Positions 3,726 to 49,964 of a stretch of DNA of 64,000 nucleotides are shown in pieces (positions within the stretch are counted from its first letter, which is position 1; every line of letters begins with the position of its first letter). The position numbers and the translations under genes were made by a program. The notes beneath the pieces are model-generated. The model had not been told where the DNA came from. It did not search any database and was given only the letters and a program-made list of their open reading frames with translations. Source of the DNA: a virus; IMG/VR virus record IMGVR_UViG_3300035701_000001, one strand, 5' to 3'.

Positions 3726-3989
3726 ATGCAAAAACGGCCTGACATCGAAGCGTTCCAGAAAACGATGTACCGTTCGAACGAACTGTTCCCCCACACGAAG
3801 ATCACCAAGGACATCTTGGAGATCCTCGCCTACCTGAAGTCTGTGGAACAACAACGCGATGAAGCCCTGATCGCCGTGCGAGAGGATGGATGCCAGGGCT
3901 ATCCTCATGTCTGCGAAGAATGCACGTACAACAACCCTTGCAAGCAGCGAAATGTCCTGGCTGCCGAAGACGAGAGGAACAAGCCATGA
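3726..3989 (+). CDS. hypothetical protein (RPDIE motif, related to 26096 gene)
   Basis: N-terminus MQKRPDIE resembles MVQRPDIEEIRERA at 26096. Confidence 0.7.
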   Translation: MQKRPDIEAFQKTMYRSNELFPHTKITKDILEILAYLKSVEQQRDEALIAVREDGCQGYPHVCEECTYNNPCKQRNVLAAEDERNKP

Positions 3990-4603
3990 ACGGACCGGAA
4001 GCCGATACCCTCGTCGGGCTGGAGAAGCTGTTCGAAAGGGTAGAACGAGAGCGCGACGATGCCTTGGCCATCGTGGCGGAGTACAAAGCCGCACGAGAGG
4101 ATGCACTCAACCTCCGTGAGGAAGCCCGTCGGGAACGCGATGATCTCCAGGCAAAGCTCACGGAGATATCCGGACTTTTCCGTTCCGAGGGGGCTCTCCG
4201 TATCCTGGAAGAACGGAATCGCCAGGTGACTGCCGAGGGCTGGACCCCAGAACATGACGACGGACATGTCCACGGAGAACTCGCCATCCGTGCCGCCGAA
4301 CTGGCGGTGGACGGTACGGATGCCTGGGTAGACGACCCGAACTGTGACAAGGATCCCTGGGGACTTGTCCAGAAACACGGTCACTGCAGTAAAAACGGAG
4401 ATCGCAAGCGGGCACTTGCCATTGCAGGGGCACTGCTGGCGGCGGAACTGGACCGCGTTCTTCGCAAAAATATCCATGCAAAAGCCGAGTTCCTCCACGA
4501 GGAGTACGGTGTGCCCGTGGAACATGCTGTCGGGATGCTCACGGGGAAGAAGCCCATCGGTACTTCCGATGAAGAGAGCGGATCGGGGGAAACCTCCCGA
4601 TGA
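3986..4603 (+). CDS. coiled-coil protein with conserved phage ERxRQxxxEGWTxEHDDxHxxGEL domain
   Basis: Motif EERNRQVTAEGWTPEHDDGHVHGELA...AGALLAAELDR; function not known to me. Confidence 0.8.
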   Translation: MNGPEADTLVGLEKLFERVERERDDALAIVAEYKAAREDALNLREEARRERDDLQAKLTEISGLFRSEGALRILEERNRQVTAEGWTPEHDDGHVHGELAIRAAELAVDGTDAWVDDPNCDKDPWGLVQKHGHCSKNGDRKRALAIAGALLAAELDRVLRKNIHAKAEFLHEEYGVPVEHAVGMLTGKKPIGTSDEESGSGETSR

Positions 4604-4992
4604 CTCGTTTTTTCTGGATGGCGGGCTTCCTGACCCTGTGGCTACTGATTCCACAGGTCTGGACCCTGGGATTCGAAGCAGTGTGGTTGTGGCGTATCTA
4701 CAAGAAGAACGGGAGGAAAGCGTTCTGGTCCGCCCTGGATGCCTTCCTGCACTATTTGGACAACTACCGGCAGGACTTCGGACTGACCGCTGCACGGCTC
4801 GTCGAGCAGGGCCAGATCGTTCGGCCCGCAACGTTTCTTCCCGATATCACCCCCCTTCACATGCTCCTCTGGCCCCTATACTGGCCCTACGATGTCGCAA
4901 CGATTCGCTTCGTCCAGACCGTCTTGCTCGTTGTGCTGGACGAAAATTCTCGAAACAATGAAAACACTCCAACCCATGGAAAATATCCATGA
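4600..4992 (+). CDS. membrane protein
   Basis: Hydrophobic N-terminus and LLWPLYWPY segment. Confidence 0.7.
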   Translation: MTRFFWMAGFLTLWLLIPQVWTLGFEAVWLWRIYKKNGRKAFWSALDAFLHYLDNYRQDFGLTAARLVEQGQIVRPATFLPDITPLHMLLWPLYWPYDVATIRFVQTVLLVVLDENSRNNENTPTHGKYP

Positions 4993-5372
4993 GAACGATC
5001 ACGACACACCACGATAGACACGGGATCAACGACGAGACCGTCATCGAGGTCGATGACAAGGATCCGAACGCGGGGGGAGCCAGCCATCACTACGAGTTGT
5101 CCCGTCCTGTTCCTGGGTGGGGAACCACCAAGACCCACGCTCTCATCGACTTCCAGCATGGTCCCCGCCTGGACTTGAACAGCACTCCCGGCATCCTCGA
5201 TGGGGCCATCCTCGCCGTCCTCATCGACCGCTACGAGTGCTTCCAGGCAGGCCCGTTCGCCTGCCGGGAGAACGCCCTCATCCTCACGAAGCTCCAGGAG
5301 GCGATGCACTGGATGAAGCATCGGGCCGATGAGCGCGCCCAGCGCAACGTGCTTGGCAAAAACGAGAAGTAA
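4989..5372 (+). CDS. tad1: Tad1-family (Acb2/Tad1 hairpin) anti-defence signal sponge
   Basis: GGASHHY, IDFQHGPR, DRYECFQAGPFACRENALILTKLQEAMHWM, RNVLGKNEK match Tad1 motifs as I recall them ([43 protein letters not shown]). Confidence 0.88.
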   Translation: MRTITTHHDRHGINDETVIEVDDKDPNAGGASHHYELSRPVPGWGTTKTHALIDFQHGPRLDLNSTPGILDGAILAVLIDRYECFQAGPFACRENALILTKLQEAMHWMKHRADERAQRNVLGKNEK

Positions 5373-8919: not shown

Positions 8920-9203
8920 ACAGGCCAAACTTCTCGGACTCCGCGTCCTCCGCGTCCTCTGCGGTGGAAAAGAAGGGCAGGATCACCACGAAGAACACGA
9001 AGAACACGAAGGATCGGTCCGAACTCCGCGTTCTCCGCGTTCTCTGCGGTGGAAAAGAAGGGCAGAATCACCACGAAGAACACGAAGAACACGAAGGATC
9101 GGACGGACCAAACTCCGCGTTCTCCGCGTCCTCTGCGGTGGAAAAGAAGGGCAGGATCACCACGAAGAACACGAAGAACACGAAGAAGGAAACCAAGGCA
9201 TGA
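8916..9203 (+). CDS. ORF made almost entirely of the palindromic repeat cluster
   Basis: ATG overlaps TGA 8919 and its TGA overlaps ATG 9200; coding status uncertain. Confidence 0.35.
   Translation: MNRPNFSDSASSASSAVEKKGRITTKNTKNTKDRSELRVLRVLCGGKEGQNHHEEHEEHEGSDGPNSAFSASSAVEKKGRITTKNTKNTKKETKA
8939..9185. repeat. Repeat cluster R1: three 73-bp imperfect palindromes (27-19-27)
   Basis: CTCCGCGTYCTCCGCGTYCTCTGCGGT-N19-ACCACGAAGAACACGAAGAACACGAAG at 8939, 9024, 9113. Confidence 0.95.
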
Positions 9204-11756: not shown

Positions 11757-12091
11757 TGAATTCCCGTTCTCCCGGCGTCGGAAATCCGCTCACGTTCTGC
11801 TGCTGGAACTGCCGACGGAACAACCGAAAATTCGAGAACCCCATTCCGGATGGCCGAATCGACCAGGTCCTGATCATCGGCAAGACCCGGAAGAACCATG
11901 CCCTCCTCGGTCGAGAAGCCTCTTCCCCAAGGATGCGGAAAATCCGGGTCCAATACCGCTGCCTGGACTGTGGGCATGTCGGATGGTCTGCGCATGTCGA
12001 CCTCGTGAACCGGTTCGAGCAATGGCAGGCAACAATTCCCCAGGAATCCATCCCCTTTCCGAAAAAAGAAGAGAGGAACGAAACTTTATGA
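11753..12091 (+). CDS. zinc-binding hypothetical protein
   Basis: CWNC and CLDCGH motifs. Confidence 0.7.
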   Translation: MMNSRSPGVGNPLTFCCWNCRRNNRKFENPIPDGRIDQVLIIGKTRKNHALLGREASSPRMRKIRVQYRCLDCGHVGWSAHVDLVNRFEQWQATIPQESIPFPKKEERNETL

Positions 12092-12369
12092 GCCATGAAC
12101 CGCCGAGTGATCTGGACCGTCTGCAGGCATCCCTCCAGGGCATCGAGGAGGCAATCCAGGATCAGACAAAGGTAATTTCAGAGCTTCATCATGGATTCCA
12201 TACCGCTCTTGCCGAGGAATACCTGGAACGTGCGGTGAGTGCCGAAAGGAAGTGGAAGGAACTCGATGCCAAGCTGCGGAACCTGGCCGGGAAGTGGAAG
12301 AAAGCAAACTGCAACACATCCTTCGATGTCTGTGCTTGTGAATTGCTCTCCTTGTTGGACAAGTCATGA
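12088..12369 (+). CDS. coiled-coil hypothetical protein
   Basis: ATGA overlaps at both ends. Confidence 0.7.
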   Translation: MSHEPPSDLDRLQASLQGIEEAIQDQTKVISELHHGFHTALAEEYLERAVSAERKWKELDAKLRNLAGKWKKANCNTSFDVCACELLSLLDKS

Positions 12370-12662
12370 CCTGTGAAAACTGGACCCCAAGCCTCTGGCG
12401 TACTCTCATCGGCGAATACCTGGAGGTCAAGCCAAGTCTCGTCGCAAACCGGATGACACCCAACGACATGACGGCACGGCAACAGGTGGGCCTCTACCTC
12501 AAGTCCTTCGGAGGCAACGCCCTCGTGACGTTTCGCTCCCTGCCTCGTGACGTGCAACGGGGATACCAGAAGCAGTGGCCCGAGTTCGAGGGGCTCCTGG
12601 AGCAGTGCATCCAGGAAGGACCCGGAAATCCGATGCCGCCTCCTGTCGATTCGGAGATCTGA
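12366..12662 (+). CDS. hypothetical protein
   Basis: ATGA-coupled. Confidence 0.7.
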   Translation: MTCENWTPSLWRTLIGEYLEVKPSLVANRMTPNDMTARQQVGLYLKSFGGNALVTFRSLPRDVQRGYQKQWPEFEGLLEQCIQEGPGNPMPPPVDSEI

Positions 12663-12695
12663 CAGAGAGATTCACAAAAATGCAAGCAGAACATC

Positions 12696-12724
12696 TTGAA
12701 ACCGGACGTGTCCTCGGGTAGAGG
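12696..12724 (+). promoter_or_regulatory. possible promoter with degenerate operator
   Basis: TTGAAA-17-TAGAGG with half-site CGTGTCC in the same position as in P1-P8. Confidence 0.45.
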
Positions 12725-12759
12725 AGGGTGGAAACGCAACTTCCACGGAGGAACAGGCC

Positions 12760-13062
12760 ATGTACAGACCCGGATGCGTGAGACAGGCTCCGATGATGCC
12801 CGCGATAGGCATGGGGGACTCGATGAAGAGTGCCAACCTCGCGAAGGTCGAGAACGGCTTCATCGTGACCCTCTGCTACCCGAAGAAGTTCGAGCCTTCT
12901 GCCGAAGAGCGAAAGCTGATGGAGAAGTACGCCGGATCATGCGAGGGGCCTCCGCTCGGACTCGGAGAACTCGACTTCGGAAACCAGATGGTCGAAGAGA
13001 CCCATGTGGCCAAGACCTGGGACGAGGCGGTGCAGATCCTGGCCACCTGCATGGCCACCTGA
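12760..13062 (+). CDS. hypothetical protein (KVENGFIV motif)
   Basis: Open frame; true start may be further downstream. Confidence 0.7.
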   Translation: MYRPGCVRQAPMMPAIGMGDSMKSANLAKVENGFIVTLCYPKKFEPSAEERKLMEKYAGSCEGPPLGLGELDFGNQMVEETHVAKTWDEAVQILATCMAT

Positions 13063-13076
13063 CAAGGCGAGCCGAT

Positions 13077-13334
13077 CTCCGCGTTTTCCGCGTTCTTTGC
13101 GGTAGAAAAGAACGGAGGGATCACCACGAAGAACACGAAGAACACGAAGGATCGGATGGGCCGGACTCCGCGTTCTCCGCGTTCTCAGCAGTAGATTTCC
13201 TCTCCGGATTTCTACCACGAAGAACACGAAGGACATGAAGGAAGACGGAGGACCCTCTGATCTCCGCGTTCTCCGCGTTCTCAGCGGTAGAAAAGACTGA
13301 AAGAACCACCACGGAGGACGCGGAGGACACGGAG
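13077..13334. repeat. Repeat cluster R2: three imperfect palindromes
   Basis: Units at 13077 (loop 19), 13166 (loop 21), 13262 (loop 19); same arms as R1. Confidence 0.95.
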
Positions 13335-13381
13335 AGCACACCAGTCCAAACGGTTTCTCGACCTCTTGCCCATGAAACGGT

Positions 13382-13410
13382 TCGACACAGCCTGTGTCAC
13401 AGGGTAGAAG
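13382..13410 (+). promoter_or_regulatory. sigma70-like promoter P3 with operator CGACACA-GCC-TGTGTCA, heading the paralogue array
   Basis: TCGACA-17-TAGAAG. Confidence 0.8.
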
Positions 13411-13430
13411 AGGGGAGAGGTTTCTCTCCA

Positions 13431-14000
13431 ATGTCCAAAACGAAGGACAAGACCCAGAAAAACAAGGTCCGAAAGGACAAGACCCGGTTCGTCTCCGTGC
13501 TCTTGCACCCTCCCAAGGGAGATCCACAGGGACTCTTGAGGGAAGGACCACTCGGGGCTCGGCCCCCCATGGCCTGGCTCTCGAAGACGAGCGAACGAAA
13601 GCACGAGGAGTGCCTGGATTGCGATCCCTGCTTCGAACTGCACCGGGAAGGCTATAGCCATTGCACGGTGTGTGAAGAGGAATGGCCGTGCAGCCAGGTG
13701 GGTAAGGTCGAGGTTCCTGCAAGCAAACAGTGGAAGCCCTGCGAGGGGTGCCCCCCCGAGAAAGAACGGTGGAGACCCTGTGGAGGGTGCCGGGGAGATG
13801 CCATCGTGCTTGCCTGGGAAGGCCAGGTCATCGAGGGGGGCTGTACGTGGCTCACCATGAGATACCCATCGAGAATGTTCAGCACCCTTTACGTAGATGT
13901 TGTCTTCATGCTCAAAGAGCAAACCGATTTCAGTTCCCTTCGCGCGGTGGGAGAGGTTGTCCTGCTCGATGCGAACGGCAAGGAGGTGTTCGGTGACTGA
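13431..14000 (+). CDS. Array A paralogue A1 (GARPP/ALVLAWEG family), Cys-rich insert
   Basis: LLREGPLGARPP...AIVLAWEG...GEVVLLDANGKEV. Confidence 0.85.
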   Translation: MSKTKDKTQKNKVRKDKTRFVSVLLHPPKGDPQGLLREGPLGARPPMAWLSKTSERKHEECLDCDPCFELHREGYSHCTVCEEEWPCSQVGKVEVPASKQWKPCEGCPPEKERWRPCGGCRGDAIVLAWEGQVIEGGCTWLTMRYPSRMFSTLYVDVVFMLKEQTDFSSLRAVGEVVLLDANGKEVFGD

Positions 14001-14415
14001 CCCCTCCGCCATCCTGCTCGTTGCCACATCCGAACACGGCAAAGCCCTGTTGCGAGAGGGGCCGTGTGGAGCACGCCCCCCGATGGTCGTGCTGGGAGGG
14101 AAGGGCCGAGACGGTCCGGCACGGTGGCTTCCACGCGACCAGGCAGACTGGACAACGACCAATCGGAGATGTCCCATGTTGGGGCGGGATTTCGGCGGGG
14201 GCCATCGTGCCGTTACCGCTCTTGTTCTCGCCTGGGAGGGGGAAAACGTCCCCGAAGGCTGGGACCGCCTCACCCGTGTCGCGCCGAAGGTCTATCTGTC
14301 CCGTCTGAACTTCTTTCCCGACGGTGCGCTCGCCTGTGCGCGTGCGTACGAACGGGCCGGATTCGGGACCGTCGTCTGCCTGGGAACGGACGGCAAGGAG
14401 ATGTCCGATGGCTGA
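13993..14415 (+). CDS. Array A paralogue A2
   Basis: GTG start overlapping A1 stop; LLREGPCGARPP...ALVLAWEG...GTVVCLGTDGKEM. Confidence 0.85.
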   Translation: MTDPSAILLVATSEHGKALLREGPCGARPPMVVLGGKGRDGPARWLPRDQADWTTTNRRCPMLGRDFGGGHRAVTALVLAWEGENVPEGWDRLTRVAPKVYLSRLNFFPDGALACARAYERAGFGTVVCLGTDGKEMSDG

Positions 14416-14941
14416 CCCCTCCGCCATCCTGCTCGTCCCTACACCCGAGTATACCGAGGTTCTCTTCCGTACTGGCCCCTGTGGAGCCCGACCTCCACTG
14501 GTCGGTCGCTTTGCGGTCGCAGGGACCGCGAAGTGCCCTCACTGCCAGAAAACGCTTCGCTACAGCCCCCCTCCAACCGAGCAGACCTCCGATCTCTGGT
14601 GTTGCGATTCCTGCGACCAGTCGTGGTACGAACGGCAGATCTACGACTTCTCGGAGCATCGCTGGGAAACCTACCGGGGCTGGAAACCGGTTCCCATGCA
14701 GTGGGATCGCTGTGCACTGGTCCTTGCCTGGGAAGGCAAACCGTTGGAAGAAGGCCTTTTCCGTGCAGTCCGTGCACTGGGAAAGGACCATGGAAGGCTC
14801 GAACGGATCCAGGCGTACCTGAACTGCATCGAAATGAGGGGGATTCCCGATCTCCTGGAAACCTGCCAGTACCATAGGCTTGATACGTTGGGCACGTTGA
14901 TCCACCTCGACGCGGAAGGCAAGGAGGTCTCCGGTGGCTGA
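14408..14941 (+). CDS. Array A paralogue A3, zinc-ribbon insert
   Basis: MADPSAILLVP...GPCGARPP...CPHC...CDSC...ALVLAWEG...LDAEGKEV. Confidence 0.85.
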   Translation: MADPSAILLVPTPEYTEVLFRTGPCGARPPLVGRFAVAGTAKCPHCQKTLRYSPPPTEQTSDLWCCDSCDQSWYERQIYDFSEHRWETYRGWKPVPMQWDRCALVLAWEGKPLEEGLFRAVRALGKDHGRLERIQAYLNCIEMRGIPDLLETCQYHRLDTLGTLIHLDAEGKEVSGG

Positions 14942-15359
14942 CGTCCATGCCCTCTTGCTCGTCCCCCCCAAGAGAGATCCGAAGGGCCTGCTCCGCGAAG
15001 GACCCTGCGGGGCAAGGCCTCCCAATGTCCACTGGACGACCTGTCCGGTGCACGGGCGCAGTGCCCTGGTCTCCAACGACAAACTTCCACCCGCACCTTG
15101 CCCTGAGTACGCCTGCGGACCCATCCACACCCACGAGGCCCTCGTGCTTGCGTGGGACGGACAGCCGGTGGACGAGGGAATCGACCGGGCCGTCCGGGTT
15201 TTGGGTTTTCACCGGAGCCATGTCTACAAGATCGTGATGGCCCATCTGGGACTGCTGAAAGGCCCCGAGAACCTGCTGCGCTGGTTGCGGGACGATTCGG
15301 TGAATCTCGGTACGCTCATCCGGCTCGACGAAGATGGAAAGGAGATCTCCGATAGCTGA
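14934..15359 (+). CDS. Array A paralogue A4
   Basis: GTG start; LLREGPCGARPP...CPVHG...ALVLAWDG...LDEDGKEI. Confidence 0.85.
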   Translation: MADVHALLLVPPKRDPKGLLREGPCGARPPNVHWTTCPVHGRSALVSNDKLPPAPCPEYACGPIHTHEALVLAWDGQPVDEGIDRAVRVLGFHRSHVYKIVMAHLGLLKGPENLLRWLRDDSVNLGTLIRLDEDGKEISDS

Positions 15360-15768
15360 CCCCTTCGCCGTCCTGTTCGTTCCCACCGAAGAACATCGGG
15401 AAGCCCTGCTGCACCGTGGCCCGTGCGGAGCCCGGCCGCCGATGGCACAAATCAACTCTCTTCTCGTTGGTGACAAATGGGTGCCGATCTGGGTCGAGGT
15501 GACGTATGAGTATAGACCTGGATTCGCACTCGTTCTTGCCTGGGAAGACAAGTCCGTTCTCGAAGGGCTGGAACGACTGCACCACCATGCAACGGAGTTC
15601 TCCCTCGCTGAGAAATGCCGATGGAAATGGAACCTGAAGGCCCCTTCGGACTGGATGGTCCCTGACCAGGTTTTCGAAGTCGTACAAGTCGCCCGGCTTG
15701 CCGAGGAAATGGGGCTTGGAACCGTTGTCTGCCTCGATGCGGAAGGCAAGGAGATCTCCCATGGCTGA
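15352..15768 (+). CDS. Array A paralogue A5 (ATA at the homologous start position)
   Basis: IADPFAVLFVP...GPCGARPP...ALVLAWED...LDAEGKEI; alternative ATG at 15334. Confidence 0.75.
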   Translation: MADPFAVLFVPTEEHREALLHRGPCGARPPMAQINSLLVGDKWVPIWVEVTYEYRPGFALVLAWEDKSVLEGLERLHHHATEFSLAEKCRWKWNLKAPSDWMVPDQVFEVVQVARLAEEMGLGTVVCLDAEGKEISHG

Positions 15769-16195
15769 TCTCTTCGCCGTCCTGCTCGTCCCCTCTCCCG
15801 AGCACCTGGAACTCACGCTCGATGGTCCCTACGGAGCCCGGCCCCCAACGGCCCGTGCCTTCACGTGCCCCGTGCACGGTCGGGGCCCCTGGTACGTCCA
15901 CAACTACGCGCTGAGCACACGCTGCTGCAGTTCCGTGAAGGCAGATTCCACCTGTACGAAAGATTGTCCTCCCACCGTCGGCCTCGTGCTGGCCTGGGAC
16001 GGAAAACCCATCGAGATGGGCATGTTCTATGCAGTACGCGCTCTCGAAAAAGCCATCGGTAGACGCCACGAAATTTTTGTGTCCTGGCACTGTGTCGACA
16101 TGGACAACGTGAGGAATCTGCGACATGACTGCCTTGGCCATGAACTTGGAAAGTTCCTCAGTCTAAACGCCGATGGACGGGAGATGAACCCATGA
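15761..16195 (+). CDS. Array A paralogue A6
   Basis: MADLFAVLLVP...GPYGARPP...CPVHG...GLVLAWDG...LNADGREM. Confidence 0.85.
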   Translation: MADLFAVLLVPSPEHLELTLDGPYGARPPTARAFTCPVHGRGPWYVHNYALSTRCCSSVKADSTCTKDCPPTVGLVLAWDGKPIEMGMFYAVRALEKAIGRRHEIFVSWHCVDMDNVRNLRHDCLGHELGKFLSLNADGREMNP

Positions 16196-17262
16196 GCGAT
16201 GTGGGAACTCCCATTCTACTGACGCGAGACGCCTTCCGAACTGCCGTGTTCGAGCGGGACCAGTACCGGTGTGTGCTCTGCGAAAAACCAGCCGCCGATG
16301 CCCATCATATCCTCGACCGTCGTCTCTGGCCCGACGAGGGCTACTACCTGGAAAACGGGGCCTCGGTCTGCCCCGAGCACCACATCCTATGTGAACAGAC
16401 CGTAGTCTCCTGCGAGGAACTCCGGGAACGGTGTGGTATTACCCACGCCATCCTTCCTCCGCACCTCTACGATGACGGGGACTCCCACTATGACAAGTGG
16501 GGCAACCCGATCCTCTCGAACGGAATGCGGATGCGGGGGGAACTGTTCTTCGACGAGTCCGTCCAGAAAGTCCTCGTGGAAGGAAGGGTTCTCGGCCTCT
16601 TCACCCAGTACGTGAAATATCCGAGGACGTACCACCTCCCCTGGAGTCCTGGAGTCACAAAAGACGACCGGGTGCAGACCGATCTTTCGGCCTTCAAGGG
16701 GCAGGAGGTGGTGGCAACCGTCAAGATGGACGGGGAAAACACGACTTTTTACCGGAACTATATCCACGCCCGGTCCCTGGAGTACCGGCCACGGGTAGAC
16801 CGCGACCGGGTGAAAGCCCTCCATGCGGTCCTTTCCCACGAGATCCCTTATGGATGGCGCATTTGCGGCGAAAACCTCTGGGCAGAGCACAGCATCCGCT
16901 ACGAGCACCTTCCGTCCATCTTTCAGGTCTTCTCGGTCTGGGACGATCAAAACCACTGCCTTCCGTGGGACGAAACGGTGGAATGGGTAGCCATGCTCGA
17001 TCTACATATGGTTCCAGTGCTGTACCGAGGCCCTTGGGATGAAGCCCGTGTCCGGTCGCTCTATGTCCCGACGTTTCAAGACGAAGCGTGCGAGGGGTTC
17101 GTGATTCGAGTCACTGCAGGGTTCCGCTATGGGGAATTCCGCCGGAAAGTCGCCAAGTACGTCCGGGAGGGGCATGTCCGGACACAGGCCCATTGGACCC
17201 GTTCCATCCGACCCAATGGTCTTCGGATCGATACTGAAGGAAAGGAGACTCCCCATGTCTGA
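16192..17262 (+). CDS. HNH-like domain fused to an ATP-dependent RNA ligase
   Basis: N-term RDQYRCVLC...AHHI...NGASVCPEHH; ligase motifs YPRTYHLPWSPG, KMDGEN (I), ICGE (III), FQVF (IIIa), EGFV (IV), VAKYV (V). Confidence 0.9.
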   Translation: MSDVGTPILLTRDAFRTAVFERDQYRCVLCEKPAADAHHILDRRLWPDEGYYLENGASVCPEHHILCEQTVVSCEELRERCGITHAILPPHLYDDGDSHYDKWGNPILSNGMRMRGELFFDESVQKVLVEGRVLGLFTQYVKYPRTYHLPWSPGVTKDDRVQTDLSAFKGQEVVATVKMDGENTTFYRNYIHARSLEYRPRVDRDRVKALHAVLSHEIPYGWRICGENLWAEHSIRYEHLPSIFQVFSVWDDQNHCLPWDETVEWVAMLDLHMVPVLYRGPWDEARVRSLYVPTFQDEACEGFVIRVTAGFRYGEFRRKVAKYVREGHVRTQAHWTRSIRPNGLRIDTEGKETPHV

Positions 17263-17650
17263 TGTGTGGACCATCCTGCTCATTCCAAAGAAAGAGGACC
17301 CGTTTGGAATCCTTCGGAGAGGACCGTTCGGAGCCCAGCCCCCGACTCTGATGAACTTCTCATCCAACCCGACCTCGAACAAGTCGGGGAGATGGGACTG
17401 CTCGGTTCACATTCCAGATCAGCCAGGTTGGAAATCTCCACCGGAAGCACTCGTCCTCGCCCACGAAAGGGGTGTGGTCGAGGAGGGGGTTGTCTGGCTC
17501 GCAATGCGGTGTCCACCGATTGTCTACGGAAACCTGTACGGCCCGATCTTCGGCATGCTCAAGGAAGGATGGGTGTACGAACCGCTTGAGGAGGTGGGTA
17601 CGGTCCTCCTGCTCGACCGGGAAGGGAAGGAGATCCAGCCGAGAACATGA
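17255..17650 (+). CDS. Array A paralogue A7
   Basis: MSDVWTILLIP...GPFGAQPP...ALVLAHERG...GTVLLLDREGKEI. Confidence 0.85.
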   Translation: MSDVWTILLIPKKEDPFGILRRGPFGAQPPTLMNFSSNPTSNKSGRWDCSVHIPDQPGWKSPPEALVLAHERGVVEEGVVWLAMRCPPIVYGNLYGPIFGMLKEGWVYEPLEEVGTVLLLDREGKEIQPRT

Positions 17651-17687
17651 AACGGGAGATCCTGTTCGAATTCTTGGGAGGTGTCCG

Positions 17688-18185
17688 ATGGGTGACGGGA
17701 AGGCGATTCTGCTGATTCCAGCCAAGGGAGACCCGTTGGATCTGCTGGCAGAAGAGGGACCCTGTGGGGCTCTTCCGCCCAGAGCATGGTGCCACCGGAC
17801 TCCTGCTCGGGTCCACGAAGCATGCCAGGACTGCGATGATCTGCGTGATCTGCACCAGGGAGAGGACGGAGACTGGTGCTTCCACTGCACGGAGTGCCAC
17901 GAGCGATGGCCCTGTCTGGAGGCTGGTAAGGAGGTCGAGCCTCCCTCCGAGACATGGGAACCGGGTGGACGGTTTCCCGATGCCCTCGTGCTGGCCTGGG
18001 ATGGAAAAACACTGGGTTACGGCTGCCTGTGGCTCGCAGAAAGAGCCGGTCACGTGGTGCCTGGCTTGATCCGAGGCAAGGTTGACTTCCTGCTCTCAGG
18101 TATCGGAGACATGCCGGGATTCCTCGGGGAGTACGGAACCGTCGTCCTACTGGATGTGGAAGGCAAGGAGGTTTCCCGTGGTTGA
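17688..18185 (+). CDS. Array A paralogue A8, insert related to A1
   Basis: AILLIP...EGPCGALPP...CTECHERWPC...ALVLAWDG...LDVEGKEV. Confidence 0.85.
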   Translation: MGDGKAILLIPAKGDPLDLLAEEGPCGALPPRAWCHRTPARVHEACQDCDDLRDLHQGEDGDWCFHCTECHERWPCLEAGKEVEPPSETWEPGGRFPDALVLAWDGKTLGYGCLWLAERAGHVVPGLIRGKVDFLLSGIGDMPGFLGEYGTVVLLDVEGKEVSRG

Positions 18186-18609
18186 TGTGCACTCGGTCCT
18201 GCTTGTTCCGTCTCCCGAGCATGTCAAAGCACTACTGTGCTGTGGACCTTGCGGAGCCCGTCCTCCAATGGCACACCGTGCTGTACGCCCCATGGGTGCA
18301 GACTTCGAAATGTTCTGGTGTGGAGCACAACTCACTGAGACTCCGTGGGGAACTGGATTTGTTCTTGTCCTTGCATGGGAAGGGGAGACGGTTCCCGAAG
18401 GAATGGATCGTGTGACTCGCTGCGTTGAAAAGAAGGGACAAATGGTGGATTCAGAGCACGAAAAGCACAACAACCTTTTTGCTGCAAACTGGATACATCA
18501 AGCGAATTTTTCGGATTTGAACAACAAGAAAAGCGGTGTACCTGCATTATTGCTCCAGTTTGGAACCCTCGTCTTTCTCGATGCGAACGGCAAGGAGATT
18601 CAGCCATGA
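18178..18609 (+). CDS. Array A paralogue A9
   Basis: GTG start; GPCGARPP...VLVLAWEG...LDANGKEI. Confidence 0.85.
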   Translation: MVDVHSVLLVPSPEHVKALLCCGPCGARPPMAHRAVRPMGADFEMFWCGAQLTETPWGTGFVLVLAWEGETVPEGMDRVTRCVEKKGQMVDSEHEKHNNLFAANWIHQANFSDLNNKKSGVPALLLQFGTLVFLDANGKEIQP

Positions 18610-19016
18610 CGAAACGGCTTCTCTGTGCCATTCTGCTGATTCCCGCCCTGGAAGATCCGCTGGGACTTCTCCAGGAAGGCCCCTGTGGAGCCAGGCCTCC
18701 CCTGGCAATGAAGCCGGACTGCGAAATCCACGGGGCCCAGTGGATCCTCGGCAAGGAAGTTCCCTGCTGCCAGAACGCAGGACACAGCATTCTCATGGGA
18801 AACTGCGTGGAGGCCCTTGTACTCGTCTGGGACGGCAAACCGGTCCGCGAAGGGTGCGGGAAGCTGGAAGAAGCCTGGATGCCCTATGTGGCCGTCCGCT
18901 GGATTGACCAGGTTCTCCTGGAGATCCTGCAGGGAACCTCACGCAAGTCTCTCGGGGAAGATTGCCCCGGAACGCTCGTGTTCCTCGATGCCGAAAGGCG
19001 GGAGATCACTCCATGA
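18606..19016 (+). CDS. Array A paralogue A10
   Basis: LLQEGPCGARPP...CEIHG...ALVLVWDG...LDAERREI. Confidence 0.85.
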   Translation: MTKRLLCAILLIPALEDPLGLLQEGPCGARPPLAMKPDCEIHGAQWILGKEVPCCQNAGHSILMGNCVEALVLVWDGKPVREGCGKLEEAWMPYVAVRWIDQVLLEILQGTSRKSLGEDCPGTLVFLDAERREITP

Positions 19017-19423
19017 CTACTACTCCTGTCCACGCCGTTCTGCTCACCCCGGAGAAGGGGGACCCTCTCGGCCTGCTCCACGGGGAACCGTGCGGAGCCA
19101 AACCCCCCATCGCGTTTCGCGTGGACTGCAAGATCCACGGGGTTGGATGGTTCGCGGCCAACGAGAAACCCTGCTGCCTGAACGCGGGAATCCACCTCAT
19201 GGCAGGAGAGTCCACGGAAGCTCTGGTCCTCGTCTGGAAGGGAGAACCCGTTCCGATGGGGATGGACCGGGTACGTCGCTGTGGGCTCGACATCGAGGAC
19301 GACGAGGTCCTTCGGAACGCAGAAGATTGGGCGACCATCGGAATCATGGAGGGGACCGTCGTTCTGCTCGATGTACGGGGGACCAAAGGCCCTCCCACTC
19401 ACTGCAGCCGAACAGAACCGTAG
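19013..19423 (+). CDS. Array A paralogue A11
   Basis: LLHGEPCGAKPP...CKIHG...ALVLVWKG...GTVVLLD. Confidence 0.85.
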   Translation: MTTTPVHAVLLTPEKGDPLGLLHGEPCGAKPPIAFRVDCKIHGVGWFAANEKPCCLNAGIHLMAGESTEALVLVWKGEPVPMGMDRVRRCGLDIEDDEVLRNAEDWATIGIMEGTVVLLDVRGTKGPPTHCSRTEP

Positions 19424-19435
19424 AAGGTAAATTCC

Positions 19436-19903
19436 ATGAAGAAGACCTCTGCTTCGACAATGAAACGGTCCGCTCTCCTCCTGGTCCCGGATCCGGGCTT
19501 TCCCGAAGGCCTGCTCCGGGAAGGACCCTGTGGGGCAAAGCCACCCGTCCTCGCCCGTGCGGAAGGCCTTGCCCTCAAGGAATGGGTCGATACGGGCTGG
19601 GGGCCGGACTTTACCGACCTCGGACCAGGATTCCGCAACCTCCAGCGGGCGCTCGTCCTCGTCTGGGAAGGAGAACCCGTTCCCGAAGGGATGCACCGGC
19701 TGGCGGATTGCCTGACTTCCCTGCTGGAAAAAAATCCGAACATGACCCCCTTTACGTTCCTGACACAGGGGATGTCCGGCCCGATGGTGCTCGGCAAGTG
19801 CGCCGAGCAGGCGGGGCTCGGAACCCTGGTGCTCCTCGACGAGGAAGGCAAGGAAATTCCGAGAACTGCTGACCTGGAAAGGATGGAAAGGGTGGTTTCA
19901 TGA
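19436..19903 (+). CDS. Array A paralogue A12
   Basis: LLREGPCGAKPP...ALVLVWEG...GTLVLLDEEGKEI. Confidence 0.85.
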   Translation: MKKTSASTMKRSALLLVPDPGFPEGLLREGPCGAKPPVLARAEGLALKEWVDTGWGPDFTDLGPGFRNLQRALVLVWEGEPVPEGMHRLADCLTSLLEKNPNMTPFTFLTQGMSGPMVLGKCAEQAGLGTLVLLDEEGKEIPRTADLERMERVVS

Positions 19904-20181
19904 AGGATAACCCAGCCTGGATCGCAGCCATCCTGGCGAGCATTCCCCCGGCAGGGATCGTGGCCAACACCGAATACCCGATTCGTATAGGAGAGACGGA
20001 AGCCGTTCCTCCGCCGGACCCGACTCTTCCTCTGGACTTCTCGACCGCTGCCACGCCAAGACCCCGAAAGGGGTCCTTCCATCGGCCCGGCTTTGACGAA
20101 AAGGCCTTCTGGGAGAAGGTCGAGCACCGCCGGAAGAAGAACAAGGTGGCTCGCAAGGCCCGCAGGAAAAACAAGAAGTAA
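19900..20181 (+). CDS. hypothetical protein with basic C-terminus
   Basis: ATGA-coupled; RRKKNKVARKARRKNKK tail. Confidence 0.7.
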   Translation: MKDNPAWIAAILASIPPAGIVANTEYPIRIGETEAVPPPDPTLPLDFSTAATPRPRKGSFHRPGFDEKAFWEKVEHRRKKNKVARKARRKNKK

Positions 20182-20194
20182 CGGGAGAAACACC

Positions 20195-20608
20195 ATGCCT
20201 ATTGACCAGGCAGTCCTCGACGAAGCTATTGCAGCATTCCATGGAGCCAAGAACGCCAAAAAGGAAGCGGACGATGCGTTGTGTCTTGCACGGAAGCGCA
20301 TTGACCTGGCCTACCAGGAAGTACAGCAAGCTCGCATCCGATGGTGCGAGGCCATAAAAGGATCTGGACAAGAAGCCGCTTTCCTCGTTCCATGGGAACA
20401 CATTGCCTGGAGTGATTCCAAGAAACAGTGGCAACCCATGGGAGGTTCCCACTGCATGCAGGCCATCGAGGAATTCGTCCTGCTCGCAGGCGTTCTCGGA
20501 ACCTCCGTTTCCTTCGAGTTCAACGGAACGGTACTGTCCGTGGACTCTGGTTCGAACCCGAGCAGGATCGAGGTTATCTACTGGGAAAAACGGGGTGTGT
20601 CATGGTGA
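20195..20608 (+). CDS. hypothetical protein
   Basis: GGGAG SD before ATG 20195. Confidence 0.7.
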   Translation: MPIDQAVLDEAIAAFHGAKNAKKEADDALCLARKRIDLAYQEVQQARIRWCEAIKGSGQEAAFLVPWEHIAWSDSKKQWQPMGGSHCMQAIEEFVLLAGVLGTSVSFEFNGTVLSVDSGSNPSRIEVIYWEKRGVSW

Positions 20609-21129
20609 TGACCGACCTCTCTTCTCTTCCCGATCTCACGGAAGAGGAAAAGGACCTGGCCTCCGTTTCCCCCATTCGGGCCATCAAGGCGGTTCGAGCA
20701 CGGACAAATCTCAGCCTCTGGGAATCGAAGCGCCGCATCGACACCTACCTGGATTCCAGGAAATGCCTTCAGCAAGAGTTTCCACTCTTGTTCTTCAACG
20801 GACAGACCTACAACCTGCGGGAGTTGGAGGTCCAACTCCAGGTATTGCGGCGGCTTGTCGAGGCCGATTCCGTCCGGTGTCCTTCAATCGGACTCCCTGT
20901 GTGGGAACGCTACCACTACGATGGAGACTTCACCGGAATACTCGCTGAGGGATGGAAGTTCGGGAACGTCTTGTATACGAGTCAGGAATGGCCCCATCCT
21001 CCCCCCAGCATTCTCATCCAGATCGTGGTTCTCGACCTCTCCCAGTTCTTCCCCGTCACCGTGAACAGCCCCGAAGACCTCGATCTCCGGGCGCTCCATG
21101 CCGTCGCCTTGCACCGGATTGCCTCGTGA
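20602..21129 (+). CDS. protein with a ribosomal L7/L12 C-terminal-like motif
   Basis: PIRAIKAVRARTNLSLWESKRRID resembles IxAIKxVRxxTxLxLxEAKxxVD. Confidence 0.6.
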   Translation: MVMTDLSSLPDLTEEEKDLASVSPIRAIKAVRARTNLSLWESKRRIDTYLDSRKCLQQEFPLLFFNGQTYNLRELEVQLQVLRRLVEADSVRCPSIGLPVWERYHYDGDFTGILAEGWKFGNVLYTSQEWPHPPPSILIQIVVLDLSQFFPVTVNSPEDLDLRALHAVALHRIAS

Positions 21130-30817: not shown

Positions 30818-31080
30818 CCGAACCCGAAGACAAGCCCCTCCTGTCCGTCCATCTGCATAACGAGGACCTTGTGCTCAAGATCCAGTATCTCTGGGTCGAA
30901 CCCGAGGTCTGGGGCATCGCGCTCGCAGACATCCTGCGGAACGTCGCGGTCGCTTACGCAGGTGAAGACATCGTAAAACGCGAGAAAATCGAGGCAGTCA
31001 TCTGGAAGATGATGCGGTCCGAAATGCACCGGCAGACGAGTGCCCTGCACGTGCTTTCTCCGAAAGTGGAAGAACAATGA
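30814..31080 (+). CDS. hypothetical protein, possibly DUF5076-like
   Basis: WVEPEVWGIALADILRNVAVAY resembles WxDPxxWGxxLADxxRxxAxAY. Confidence 0.55.
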   Translation: MTEPEDKPLLSVHLHNEDLVLKIQYLWVEPEVWGIALADILRNVAVAYAGEDIVKREKIEAVIWKMMRSEMHRQTSALHVLSPKVEEQ

Positions 31081-31523
31081 CGGATCAAGGATATCCAAGG
31101 CTGAACCTCGAAGAGGTCAAGGTCATCGTGTTCGTTCCCCAGGAGGGGGACCCGTTGGGCCTGGTGAAGGATGGGGAACATGGAGACCGGCCACCTCGAA
31201 TGTCGAGGTTGATCTTCGGTGGAAGGGAGGACAAGACCGTCCAATGGAGGTCAGTCGGGGCTAGAGACCTGGTCCTCAGCTACGAACCTCCCAAAGTCAA
31301 TTCGTACTACTCCATCCTGGGGCTCCTCCTCCTGTATAAGGGCATTCCCGTCCAAATGGGGCTGTGGATCCTCACAGCGACGATAGCCTGCAAGGACAGG
31401 CCCGAGTTGCTTTCCGTCTACTCGAAGAAGCAGGCGAATCAGATCGCACAACTGGCCCAGACTTGTGGAATGGGAACCGTGGTCTACCTCGACGCCGAGA
31501 ACAGGGAGATCGAGTCGACATGA
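31077..31523 (+). CDS. Orphan Array A family member (A13)
   Basis: VIVFVPQEGDPLGLVKDGEHGDRPP...DLVLSY...GMGTVVYLDAENREI. Confidence 0.78.
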   Translation: MTDQGYPRLNLEEVKVIVFVPQEGDPLGLVKDGEHGDRPPRMSRLIFGGREDKTVQWRSVGARDLVLSYEPPKVNSYYSILGLLLLYKGIPVQMGLWILTATIACKDRPELLSVYSKKQANQIAQLAQTCGMGTVVYLDAENREIEST

Positions 31524-49160: not shown

Positions 49161-49170
49161 CGAGGCCCCC

Positions 49171-49446
49171 ATGCGCTCCTACGATCCCCAACGACGCGGA
49201 GTCGTCCGTTCGAACGTGCTTACCCGTGTCCGTGCTCCTGCCCCTGGCCTCTGCCGAAGCTGCAACGAGGAGACCTATCTGCGGGAACGCGGAACGGATG
49301 CCCCTTTCTGCTCCCTGCTCTGCCGGAATCAATTCTGGGCACGGCGCGGGGAGAACCCCAGAGAGCTTCCGCTGCGCTCGGGGGACATCCTGACCCTCTC
49401 TCCGGGCGGAATGGTGATGAGAGCGCAGGAGAGATGTTTCTCATGA
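49171..49446 (+). CDS. hypothetical protein
   Basis: CRSC...FCSLLC. Confidence 0.62.
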   Translation: MRSYDPQRRGVVRSNVLTRVRAPAPGLCRSCNEETYLRERGTDAPFCSLLCRNQFWARRGENPRELPLRSGDILTLSPGGMVMRAQERCFS

Positions 49447-49964
49447 GAAAAGAGGAAATGGAAAAAACAAAGGAAGAAACCACCCTCATATACGAACTTC
49501 AGCGGAAGATCTGCGGACGTCCTGGATGGAAATGGGAGGAGGGCATGCACGCCGAGCATCCAGGGCTCGGGCGATTCCTCGTCCACGACGTCATCCAGGA
49601 TGTCTCGACTCATCCACCCATCTACGGACTGATGTGCTGCCCGTCGAACAACTCGATCCCGTATTGGGTCAAAGGAGAGGAGTGCATCCCCGTCTTCACC
49701 CCGAACACGCTCGGCTGCCTTGCCCATCAAGTCGAGTGCGCCTGGAAGGAAAACCTCGGGGTCGACGGGGTGCACGTCGAGATCAAACGAATCTTCGATC
49801 CCACGAACGCCCTGGGGATTTCCTTTGCCTGGATGCTCGTGAACGGGATCGGAGAACCCCTCCCTCTCTCTCTCCCTCTCCACCCTTCCTACCCAAGCAA
49901 AGAACAGATGCTTGTCGAGGCCCTGATCTACGCGACCGAGTTCCCCCAGGAGGAGGCTTCGTGA
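49434..49964 (+). CDS. hypothetical protein
   Basis: WKWEEGM...TLGCLAHQVECAW. Confidence 0.72.
   Translation: MFLMRKEEMEKTKEETTLIYELQRKICGRPGWKWEEGMHAEHPGLGRFLVHDVIQDVSTHPPIYGLMCCPSNNSIPYWVKGEECIPVFTPNTLGCLAHQVECAWKENLGVDGVHVEIKRIFDPTNALGISFAWMLVNGIGEPLPLSLPLHPSYPSKEQMLVEALIYATEFPQEEAS

Follow-up and report, generated by a model that had tools for sequence, protein, structure and literature searches.

Organisation of the array and its genes

The 64,000-nucleotide (nt) stretch analysed here, referred to as the window, belongs to the virus record IMGVR_UViG_3300035701_000001 of IMG/VR, an uncultured phage-like contig of 204,502 bp. At positions 13431-19903, it carries a tandem array of 12 paralogous genes, A1 to A12. 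The list of open reading frames (ORFs) and the alignment place them head-to-tail on the + strand, with products of 131-189 amino acids (aa), and delimit three blocks common to the array copies, namely, (A/S)(V/I)LL(V/I)P..(E)GDP.GLL.EGPCGARPP, ALVLAW(D/E)G.PV.EG and GT.V.LD..G(K/R)E(V/I). In the six-frame translation of the window, a profile derived from the array matched every array copy with E-values of 1e-36 to 1e-46 and, beyond these, only a thirteenth copy, A13, with the divergent motifs GEHGDRPP, LLLLYKG and GTVVYLDAENREI. An initial annotation, made from the letters of the window, had described 12 tandem paralogues with three shared blocks, counted 13 copies and named Cys/His patterns within them. 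ORF list, alignment and profile all find the array as claimed, the thirteenth copy is the divergent one at 31077-31523, and the Cys/His patterns are found in the inserts. The genes and associated features are as follows.

13062-13430, + strand: intergenic leader, three ~90-nt repeat units followed by the A1 ribosome-binding site
13431-14000, + strand: A1, 189 aa, with a Lys-rich N-terminal extension
13993-14415, + strand: A2, from the homologous GTG start; an upstream ATG at 13969 is likewise open
14408-14941, + strand: A3, 177 aa
14934-15359, + strand: A4, 141 aa, CPVHG-type insert
15334-15768, + strand: A5, 144 aa, first structure model
15761-16195, + strand: A6, 144 aa, CPVHG-type insert with 5 Cys
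16192-17262, + strand: HNH-RNA ligase, between A6 and A7 (PF09414, 2e-30; phrog_24030, 1e-128)
17255-17650, + strand: A7, 131 aa, divergent motifs GPFGAQPP and ALVLAH
17688-18185, + strand: A8, 165 aa, second structure model
18178-18609, + strand: A9, 143 aa
18606-19016, + strand: A10, 136 aa, CEIHG...PCC insert
19013-19423, + strand: A11, 136 aa, CKIHG...PCC insert
19436-19903, + strand: A12, 155 aa, Cys-free insert, final member of the array
31077-31523, + strand: A13, 148 aa, dispersed copy (E 1e-12, profile positions 5-133)

Distribution of the family

The exhaustive profile search covered 1.84 billion representatives of metagenomic protein clusters (50% identity) and returned 861 at E<=1e-3, 404 of them at E<=1e-10. 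Most matches are 115-145 aa long. All stem from metagenomes or metagenome bins, where they are unnamed or called "hypothetical protein", and the phage-like contigs on which relatives are found reach 171 kb.

Annotated collections yielded no counterpart. Pfam gave nothing beyond chance-level Zn-ribbon matches for the 10 of 13 window copies and the 130 family members scanned. In PHROGs v4, the window copies had no significant match (best E 0.0086, to the Zn-ribbon insert of A3), and none of the 130 family members had one at E<=0.001. Neither NCBIfam 20 nor PADLOC-DB 2 contained a match to the family, and among PDB sequences, the best match to the family profile had an E-value of 0.54. A tblastn search of 50,697 phage records with a typical member found nothing, the ligase was the only match in a DNA search of phages with the array, and literature searches on the motif strings of the family brought up nothing relevant. 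With regard to cellular genomes, a protein-seeded scan of GTDB genomes found no member, and a back-translated LLxxGPCGARPP scan, with one genome per species for 185,579 prokaryote species, gave only motif-level chance matches; as far as this pattern reaches, the family thus seems to be limited to viruses. Taken at the level of sequence, it is undescribed and widespread and appears on virus-like contigs alone.

When longer fusions were sought, the one protein retrieved was P0211, of 394 aa, on a 5.7 kb Logan contig. It comprises two divergent framework copies, both lacking GPCGARPP, on either side of a middle domain that has no known match.

The variable insert site

Between GARPP and ALVLAW, each window copy carries an insert, termed V1 below, of 28-77 aa. 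The insert of A1 (77 aa, 10 Cys) combines a WPC-type ribbon with additional CxxC pairs, and the 67-aa insert of A8, of the WPC Cys/His type, is homologous to it; that of A3 (72 aa) contains CPHC...CCDSC. CxxC pairs are visible in these three inserts. A2 has a 45-aa insert with 1 Cys, and A5 a 28-aa hairpin with no Cys. Over 182 members of the family, insert length ranges from 4 to 82 aa with a median of 34; 38 inserts contain at least 4 Cys and 64 contain none. Matches to zinc-ribbon hidden Markov models (HMMs) are all sub-threshold (DUF1451, 0.11; TackOD1, 0.017; FmdB, 0.096), and the inserts are often putative Cys/His ribbons that may bind zinc.

The initial annotation had taken the 28-77-aa inserts to be unrelated to each other. 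The lengths stand, but the inserts are not wholly unrelated: a Trp within them (W49) is kept in 125 of 130 family members, and they are therefore elaborations of a conserved hairpin. The insert types of the window also recur in distantly related family proteins. The A1/A8 type (C..C...WPC...G.V) is found again in the family proteins P0035, P0009, P0072, P0097, P0086 and P0153, the A4/A6 type (CP(V/H)HG) in P0015 and P0112, and the A3 type in the distant members P0197 and L027.

A recognisable domain occupies the same site in a few members. RNA_pol_A_CTD (PF03118, hereafter alpha-CTD) lies at V1 of the proteins from loci L043 and L039 (E 3e-11 and 5e-12; 43.2 and 45.8 bits against a cut-off of 23.8; residues 57-107). 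The PF03118 scan concerned these two; the L044 and L040 proteins are near-identical to them, with the helix-hairpin-helix at the same site (L043:6452-7276, L044:1013-1837, L039:2560-3384 and L040). The alpha-CTD members have in addition a C-terminal extension of ~85 aa with a C..C/CP.C ribbon, and in L043 and L044, a UDG-exonuclease-PolA fusion gene follows immediately downstream of their gene. The domain is absent from the 10 of 13 window copies scanned. These domain matches mark the site between GARPP and ALVLAW as a true domain-insertion site accepting whole domains.

Reassortment of modules and selection

An all-against-all comparison of 195 distinct proteins (18,915 pairs) treated the V1 insert and the C-terminal remainder as separate units. 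Both modules are at least 80% identical in 9 pairs; in 28 others, V1 is at least 80% identical but the remainder at most 55%, and in 31, the remainder is at least 75% identical but V1 at most 35%. Individual alignments display the same mosaicism. P0153 and P0172 are identical through ALVLAWDGEPVAE and unrelated beyond it, one C-half is joined to four different inserts in P0172, P0178, P0179 and P0180, and P0199 shares its N-terminus and insert with P0164 and its C-half with P0184. In the alignment, the breakpoints fall at GARPP and ALVLAWDG, the two most conserved blocks.

Genes of the window and their close relatives at locus L035 show this mosaicism as well. The insert of A5 cannot be aligned with that of its ortholog (28 vs 33 aa) between conserved flanks, and the next 80 residues differ at one position, with low synonymous divergence (dS). 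A6 and its ortholog are near-identical through the insert, and 21 of the 34 residues of their second variable segment differ. Together, the mosaics indicate that the V1 insert and the C-terminal half reassort independently at conserved joints. The shuffling at the framework proposed in the initial annotation is borne out by the family-wide mosaics breaking at GARPP/ALVLAWDG and by the replaced insert of A5, and the second variable segment that it had placed before the last block is the one in which A6 and its L035 ortholog diverge.

Within modules, the ratio of nonsynonymous to synonymous divergence (dN/dS) is 0.03-0.09 for the inserts of A3, A4, A6 and A8 (0.03 for A4); the values pooled over all pairs are 0.27 (framework) and 0.22 (variable segments). 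Since these ratios are low, the genes are taken as real, and the modules bear the signature of purifying selection. Point-mutational hypervariability of the inserts was rejected on the values of 0.03-0.09, and a library diversified through insert hypervariation is not supported.

Predicted structure of the framework

The AlphaFold2 model of A5, built on a 130-sequence alignment, has a mean predicted local confidence (pLDDT) of 85.9 and a predicted TM-score (pTM) of 0.79. Its order is a strand (VLFVP), a short helix, a hairpin corresponding to the insert, a strand (ALVLAW), a long helix, two shorter helices and a strand (TVVCLD); an antiparallel hairpin joins strands 1 and 4, and the acidic motif lies on the last strand. 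In the A8 model (pLDDT 82), the same framework exceeds 90, and the 67-aa insert scores 60-80. The framework is accordingly modelled as a compact alpha/beta unit, in which the hydrophobic core strands VLLVP, ALVLAW and TVVLLD are combined with a long helix and with GPCGARPP as a rigid loop. The idea of a constant scaffold around a variable displayed domain gains support from this high-confidence framework (pLDDT >90) around a lower-confidence insert, together with the alpha-CTD at the same site elsewhere.

Structural comparisons returned a best Foldseek E-value of 0.79 against PDB and 0.09 against BFVD; the best Z obtained with VIA-align on 48,161 chains was 3.9 for A5 (root-mean-square deviation 4.0, 84 aligned) and 2.9 for A8, and the ESM Atlas had no usable match, the Atlas's own model being poor. 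The outcome is a confident fold model with no recognised relative, a weak or missing match being no proof of a new fold.

Across 130 members, the near-invariant positions are L14, L15, P17, D21, L25, L26, G29, P30, C31, G32, A33, R34, P35 and P36 in the N-terminal part, and W49, A65-W70, G72, V75, G78, G129, D135, G138 and E140 in the rest. In the window copies, the conserved polar sites vary: Cys is replaced by L/Y/F, Arg by K/Q/L, D21 by H/Y/F, E77 by M/Y and D135 by G/N, and no polar position is retained in all 13. Such frequent replacement argues against a strictly conserved catalytic site. The proteins are acidic, with a median isoelectric point (pI) of 5.3 and a median net charge of -5, and the A8 insert alone has a net charge of -9.

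In Toprim domains, the sheet has four parallel strands, strand 1 being followed by a conserved Glu and strand 3 by DxD. A Toprim-like enzyme, considered because of the VP-EGD and LLD-x-D/E-G-K/R-E motifs, appears unlikely for want of HMM or fold support and because the predicted topology differs; no Toprim family occurs among the Pfam matches at E<=1, and no Toprim chain among the fold matches.

Gene junctions, leader and embedded ligase

Including the two junctions of the ligase gene, the array has 12, of which eight overlap by 4 or 8 nt. Counted from the first ATG, A1/A2 overlap by 32 nt and A4/A5 by 26 nt, the former being reduced to 8 nt if A2 begins at the homologous GTG, and the remaining two junctions are gaps of 37 and 12 nt. 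The 4-8-nt overlaps that the initial annotation had assigned to most junctions thus hold at eight, but not at the two longer overlaps (26/32 nt) and the two gaps (37/12 nt). The commonest junction has the form GGCAAGGAG-N-T-N-TCC-N-ATGGCTGA. In it, the Lys-Glu codons of the C-terminal GKE double as a ribosome-binding site, AAGGAG, at a distance of 7-8 nt from the downstream start codon; the stop codon is located inside ATGGCTGA, overlapping the start of the next gene. This architecture marks the array junctions as translationally coupled.

A 370-nt block precedes A1, with its repeated element at 13062-13345. Each repeat unit of this leader consists of CTCCGCGTTCTCCGCGTTCT, then GTAGAAA/GTGGAAA, then CACGAAGAACACGAAG, and contains 9-nt-periodic CACGAAGAA repeats; the 9-nt repeat continues into the Lys-rich first codons of A1. 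The element has 8 matches versus 0.01 expected, and a second copy lies at 8939-9190, 4 kb upstream. As RNA, the copy at the array folds far better than shuffled sequences (z -5.8). A consensus scan of 12000-21000 found no sigma-70-like promoter, so that the promoter "P3" placed directly before the array in the initial annotation was not recovered, the structured repeat block being found there instead. The leader at 13062-13430 is a candidate regulatory or transcript-start region and could be a promoter, a leader or an insulator.

The gene for the HNH-RNA ligase fusion is inserted in the array with the same type of junctions, overlapping A6 by 4 nt and A7 by 8 nt. Its product resembles the Caulobacter phage CcrSC RNA ligase, with 52% identity that extends over residues 9-346 only. 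The last ten residues, DTEGKETPHV, lie outside this homology and reproduce the GKE junction of the family, supplying the ribosome-binding site and the overlapping start of A7. We read the ligase as a foreign gene in a cassette slot, which was either recombined in at the junctions or selected for translational coupling.

Turnover and age of the array

Related contigs differ in the membership of the array. Locus L009 carries A8'-A9'-A10'-A11' (92-99% protein identity; A8 92%, A10 99%) between unrelated genes, an unrelated 471-aa ORF following A11' in place of A12. The A11 protein of the window has an atypical C-terminus, LLDVRGTKGPPTHCSRTEP, without GKE, and its gene is followed by the 12-nt gap; it diverges from the otherwise identical L009 ortholog (L009:3408-3845) exactly after LLD. 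The end of A11 looks like an array boundary made by recombination at the last block. In L035, an unrelated 183-aa gene is followed by A4'-A5'-A6' (A4 92% identical) and a non-ligase gene, with neither A3 nor the ligase. L023 has a re-ordered set, A3' (95% identical) preceding an A5-like copy (63%), an A2-like copy (50%) and a short copy. Each of these three loci thus holds 3-4 copies, of differing membership.

A near-identical 38-kb contig from run SRR11719878 keeps the order A3...A12 and the ligase. At the A9 position, it has two ORFs of 77 and 55 aa (3809-4042 and 4069-4236), which, judged by gene sizes, suggests that A9 is broken in this strain. On another short contig, A4 is followed by a different gene, as judged from the gene listing, and a 3.3-kb contig has eight consecutive small genes, at least three of them family members.

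The differing membership at L009, L035 and L023 agrees with the earlier proposal that the array expands and contracts. Arrays of homologues elsewhere are not the rule: the 17 unrelated loci that span at least 10 kb comprise 14 with a single copy and three with two, the family gene being mostly single-copy. The 12-gene array is best described as a lineage-specific expansion, not a family-wide trait.

Framework identity among the window copies is 38-58%, no higher than the 55-68% that they share with outside members. Between the most similar window pairs, no 10-codon stretch exceeds about 80% nucleotide identity, which excludes recent gene conversion or duplication within the genome. The low framework identity and the lack of recent conversion therefore point to a maintained repertoire of old copies, not to recent amplification. 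A resolved family tree, sought for the monophyly of the window copies, was abandoned, as only 96 columns were usable and most forks were unresolved.

Gene neighbourhood

The genes of the family are embedded in stretches of small genes with a common orientation, most of them orphans. Among others, their neighbours encode DNA methylases (L007, L008 and L016), an HNH protein and PolA. Two genes downstream in L007 is a gene for which a precomputed annotation records an Acb5 hit; this hit was not reproduced with the local Pfam copy. Acb5 is an anti-CBASS enzyme that cleaves cGAMP (PMC12265669). In the window itself, a 127-aa ORF at 4989-5372, 8 kb upstream of the array, has a sub-threshold match to the Acb2/Tad1-hairpin family PF24729 (E 4.5e-4; 20.8 bits against a cut-off of 27).

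A second orphan family occurs next to or near the family gene in 14 of the loci retrieved (L002, L004, L007, L008, L011, L025, L034, L036, L038, L043 and L046-L049), sometimes in 2-3 copies (L049). Its members carry the motifs ACK.WRWMPGMR, PDLTDPATLGC, PDLTDPATLGCLL.LVREAWG and EAEALVAALEAAP and vary in the middle; nothing in Pfam matches the family, and a weak match to it is present in the window at 49161-49961.

Comparison with known systems

HsdS, the specificity subunit of Type I restriction-modification systems, combines a constant framework with two variable recognition regions, which are reassorted by recombination in the conserved regions. The present family resembles it in having two variable regions bounded by conserved ones and in its natural recombinants (28 vs 31 vs 9 pairs). 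Unlike HsdS, it is viral, acidic and a third of the size, it accepts whole foreign domains at V1, and it has neither sequence or fold similarity to HsdS nor partner methylase or restriction subunits. By its mode of diversification, the family works most like HsdS, the likeness being one of analogy and not of homology.

Tandem paralogue arrays are known from large viruses, such as the MGF families of African swine fever virus (ASFV), the gene 'accordions' of poxviruses and the internal-protein families of phiKZ/SPN3US-like phages. As in these multigene families, the array consists of tandem diverged paralogues whose copy number and membership differ between related strains, and it comprises at least three adjacent paralogues with varying membership. 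It differs in being unrelated to them, in that its copies are old and not recently amplified, and in that diversity arises via exchange of two internal modules, not only through duplication and point mutation.

With anti-defence neighbourhoods (Acb5, Tad1/Acb2), the family shares small acidic orphan proteins in co-directional small-gene blocks, to which the Acb5 hit in L007, the weak Acb2/Tad1 match and the RNA-repair ligase inside the array may be added. It has no homology to described anti-defence families and nothing in PADLOC, and known sponges are not two-cassette modular. Bacterial polymorphic toxin immunity arrays, which lie downstream of a toxin gene, also consist of small diverged paralogues, each presumed to neutralise a different variant of a partner. 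The run of small diverged paralogues with a common fold is similar here, but there is no toxin gene, and no family member was found by the motif scan in genomes of 185,579 prokaryote species.

Possible function

We favour, at a probability of roughly 0.45, the reading that these proteins are binders whose specificity is set by two modules and that the array is a co-expressed repertoire directed against host factors or defences. The modular architecture itself is established. Of the two swappable modules, V1 occupies the space from GARPP to ALVLAW as a hairpin or an inserted domain and is anchored by the conserved Trp, and V2 is the helical segment before the last strand. The conserved blocks act as joints, at which V1 and V2 are reassorted by recombination among genes and genomes, and the conserved gene junctions let whole genes be gained, lost or replaced, the ligase occupying such a slot. 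The proteins would be acidic, non-enzymatic binders with V1/V2 determining the target, and the 13 copies would be co-expressed against host proteins, most likely targets of defence or takeover. This reading is suggested by the small size and acidity of the proteins, the lack of a strictly kept polar site, a modular exchange typical of antagonistic interfaces, and the weak hints from the neighbourhood. Of the proposals in the initial annotation, those on structure and evolution largely hold, and the metal binding of the displayed domains and their role as inhibitors are putative.

Several observations weigh against it. Most genomes have a single copy, which is no less compatible with a conserved viral function of the housekeeping type than with an arms-race repertoire. 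The family has about 20 near-invariant positions, and the acidic ones at strand ends (D21, D/E71, E77, D135, D/E137 and E140) could form the metal site of an enzyme. Zn ribbons and the alpha-CTD are typical nucleic-acid or transcription modules, and in L043 and L044, the family gene adjoins a DNA polymerase. No positive selection within modules was seen in the ortholog comparisons, and the anti-defence context is weak, the Acb5 annotation not being reproduced and the Acb2/Tad1 match lying below the cut-off. A bolder version of the binder reading, which we consider doubtful, holds that the framework is a new virus-specific fold serving as a two-slot display scaffold, in which GPCGARPP and ALVLAWDG double as recombination sites. 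V1 would take up hairpins, Zn ribbons or a captured host alpha-CTD, and V2 would be a helical segment open to swapping, so that large uncultured phages would build and exchange specificities for counter-defence or takeover combinatorially, in the manner of HsdS or antibodies, with 13 co-translated copies fixed here.

Among the alternatives, an enzymatic framework deserves most weight, although we think it unlikely: it would be a small metal-dependent enzyme, such as a nuclease or a nucleotide/nucleic-acid modifier, with V1/V2 as target-recognition modules comparable to those of methyltransferases or homing endonucleases. Acidic residues follow each core strand (EGD; W-D/E-G; D-x-D/E-G-K/R-E), Cys31 and Arg34 lie in the invariant loop, the inserts (Zn ribbons, helix-hairpin-helix alpha-CTD) are of nucleic-acid binding types, and DNA polymerase, methylase, HNH and RNA ligase genes are nearby; yet the variation of every polar position among the 13 window copies, the overall acidity and the lack of any enzyme family in the HMM and fold searches all speak against catalysis. 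The same inserts might instead indicate regulators of transcription or replication, with the scaffold docking on a viral or host polymerase or on DNA and the inserts redirecting or blocking promoters, each paralogue acting on its own gene set. The alpha-CTD at V1 of several members, the Zn-ribbon inserts, the location in early-looking blocks and beside PolA, and the structured repeat region ahead of the array would all suit such a role. We rate it somewhat lower than the enzyme, since the acidic pI (median 5.3; -9 for the A8 insert) is unusual for DNA binders, the framework matches no helix-turn-helix or other DNA-binding family, and 13 members of one family per phage with strain-level cassette swapping are hard to square with stable circuits.

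Two further explanations carry little weight. The proteins might be particle-associated or injected, being packaged via the framework while the variable parts act in the cell. Giant phages do have paralogous internal protein families, translational coupling would provide equal doses, and in L004 and L030, the copy lies ~8 kb from a transglutaminase-fold gene (weak Pfam match) and a gene for a protein of >2,400 aa. We find this improbable, as no signal, propeptide or conserved cleavage motif was noted, no structural PHROG family was matched, and the neighbours at most loci are small non-structural or DNA-metabolism genes. Least probable of all would be selfish cassettes, which would spread by duplication or insertion by virtue of their conserved ends and be of little use to the phage. 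Conserved junction sequences, a foreign ligase gene with junction-like ends, array content that differs between strains and one copy apparently broken in one strain might be expected of such elements, but frameworks and inserts alike are under purifying selection, the old copies have remained intact, the family is conserved over hundreds of clusters and mostly single-copy, and no nuclease or integrase is associated with it.

Implications

If the favoured reading holds, poorly known big environmental viruses would contain a large unannotated family, comprising hundreds of clusters and having no recognised fold. Its framework would represent a natural compact scaffold in which one site can take up whole domains and another can exchange modules, a property of relevance to protein engineering and to the way in which viruses diversify binding specificity without hypermutation. 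Should the framework prove to be an enzyme, it would constitute a new catalytic fold with exchangeable targeting modules. The thirteen natural variants of this genome would be ready for screening against defence systems or host proteins, and the alpha-CTD members suggest that a captured domain of the host transcription machinery may serve the virus as a decoy or recruiter.

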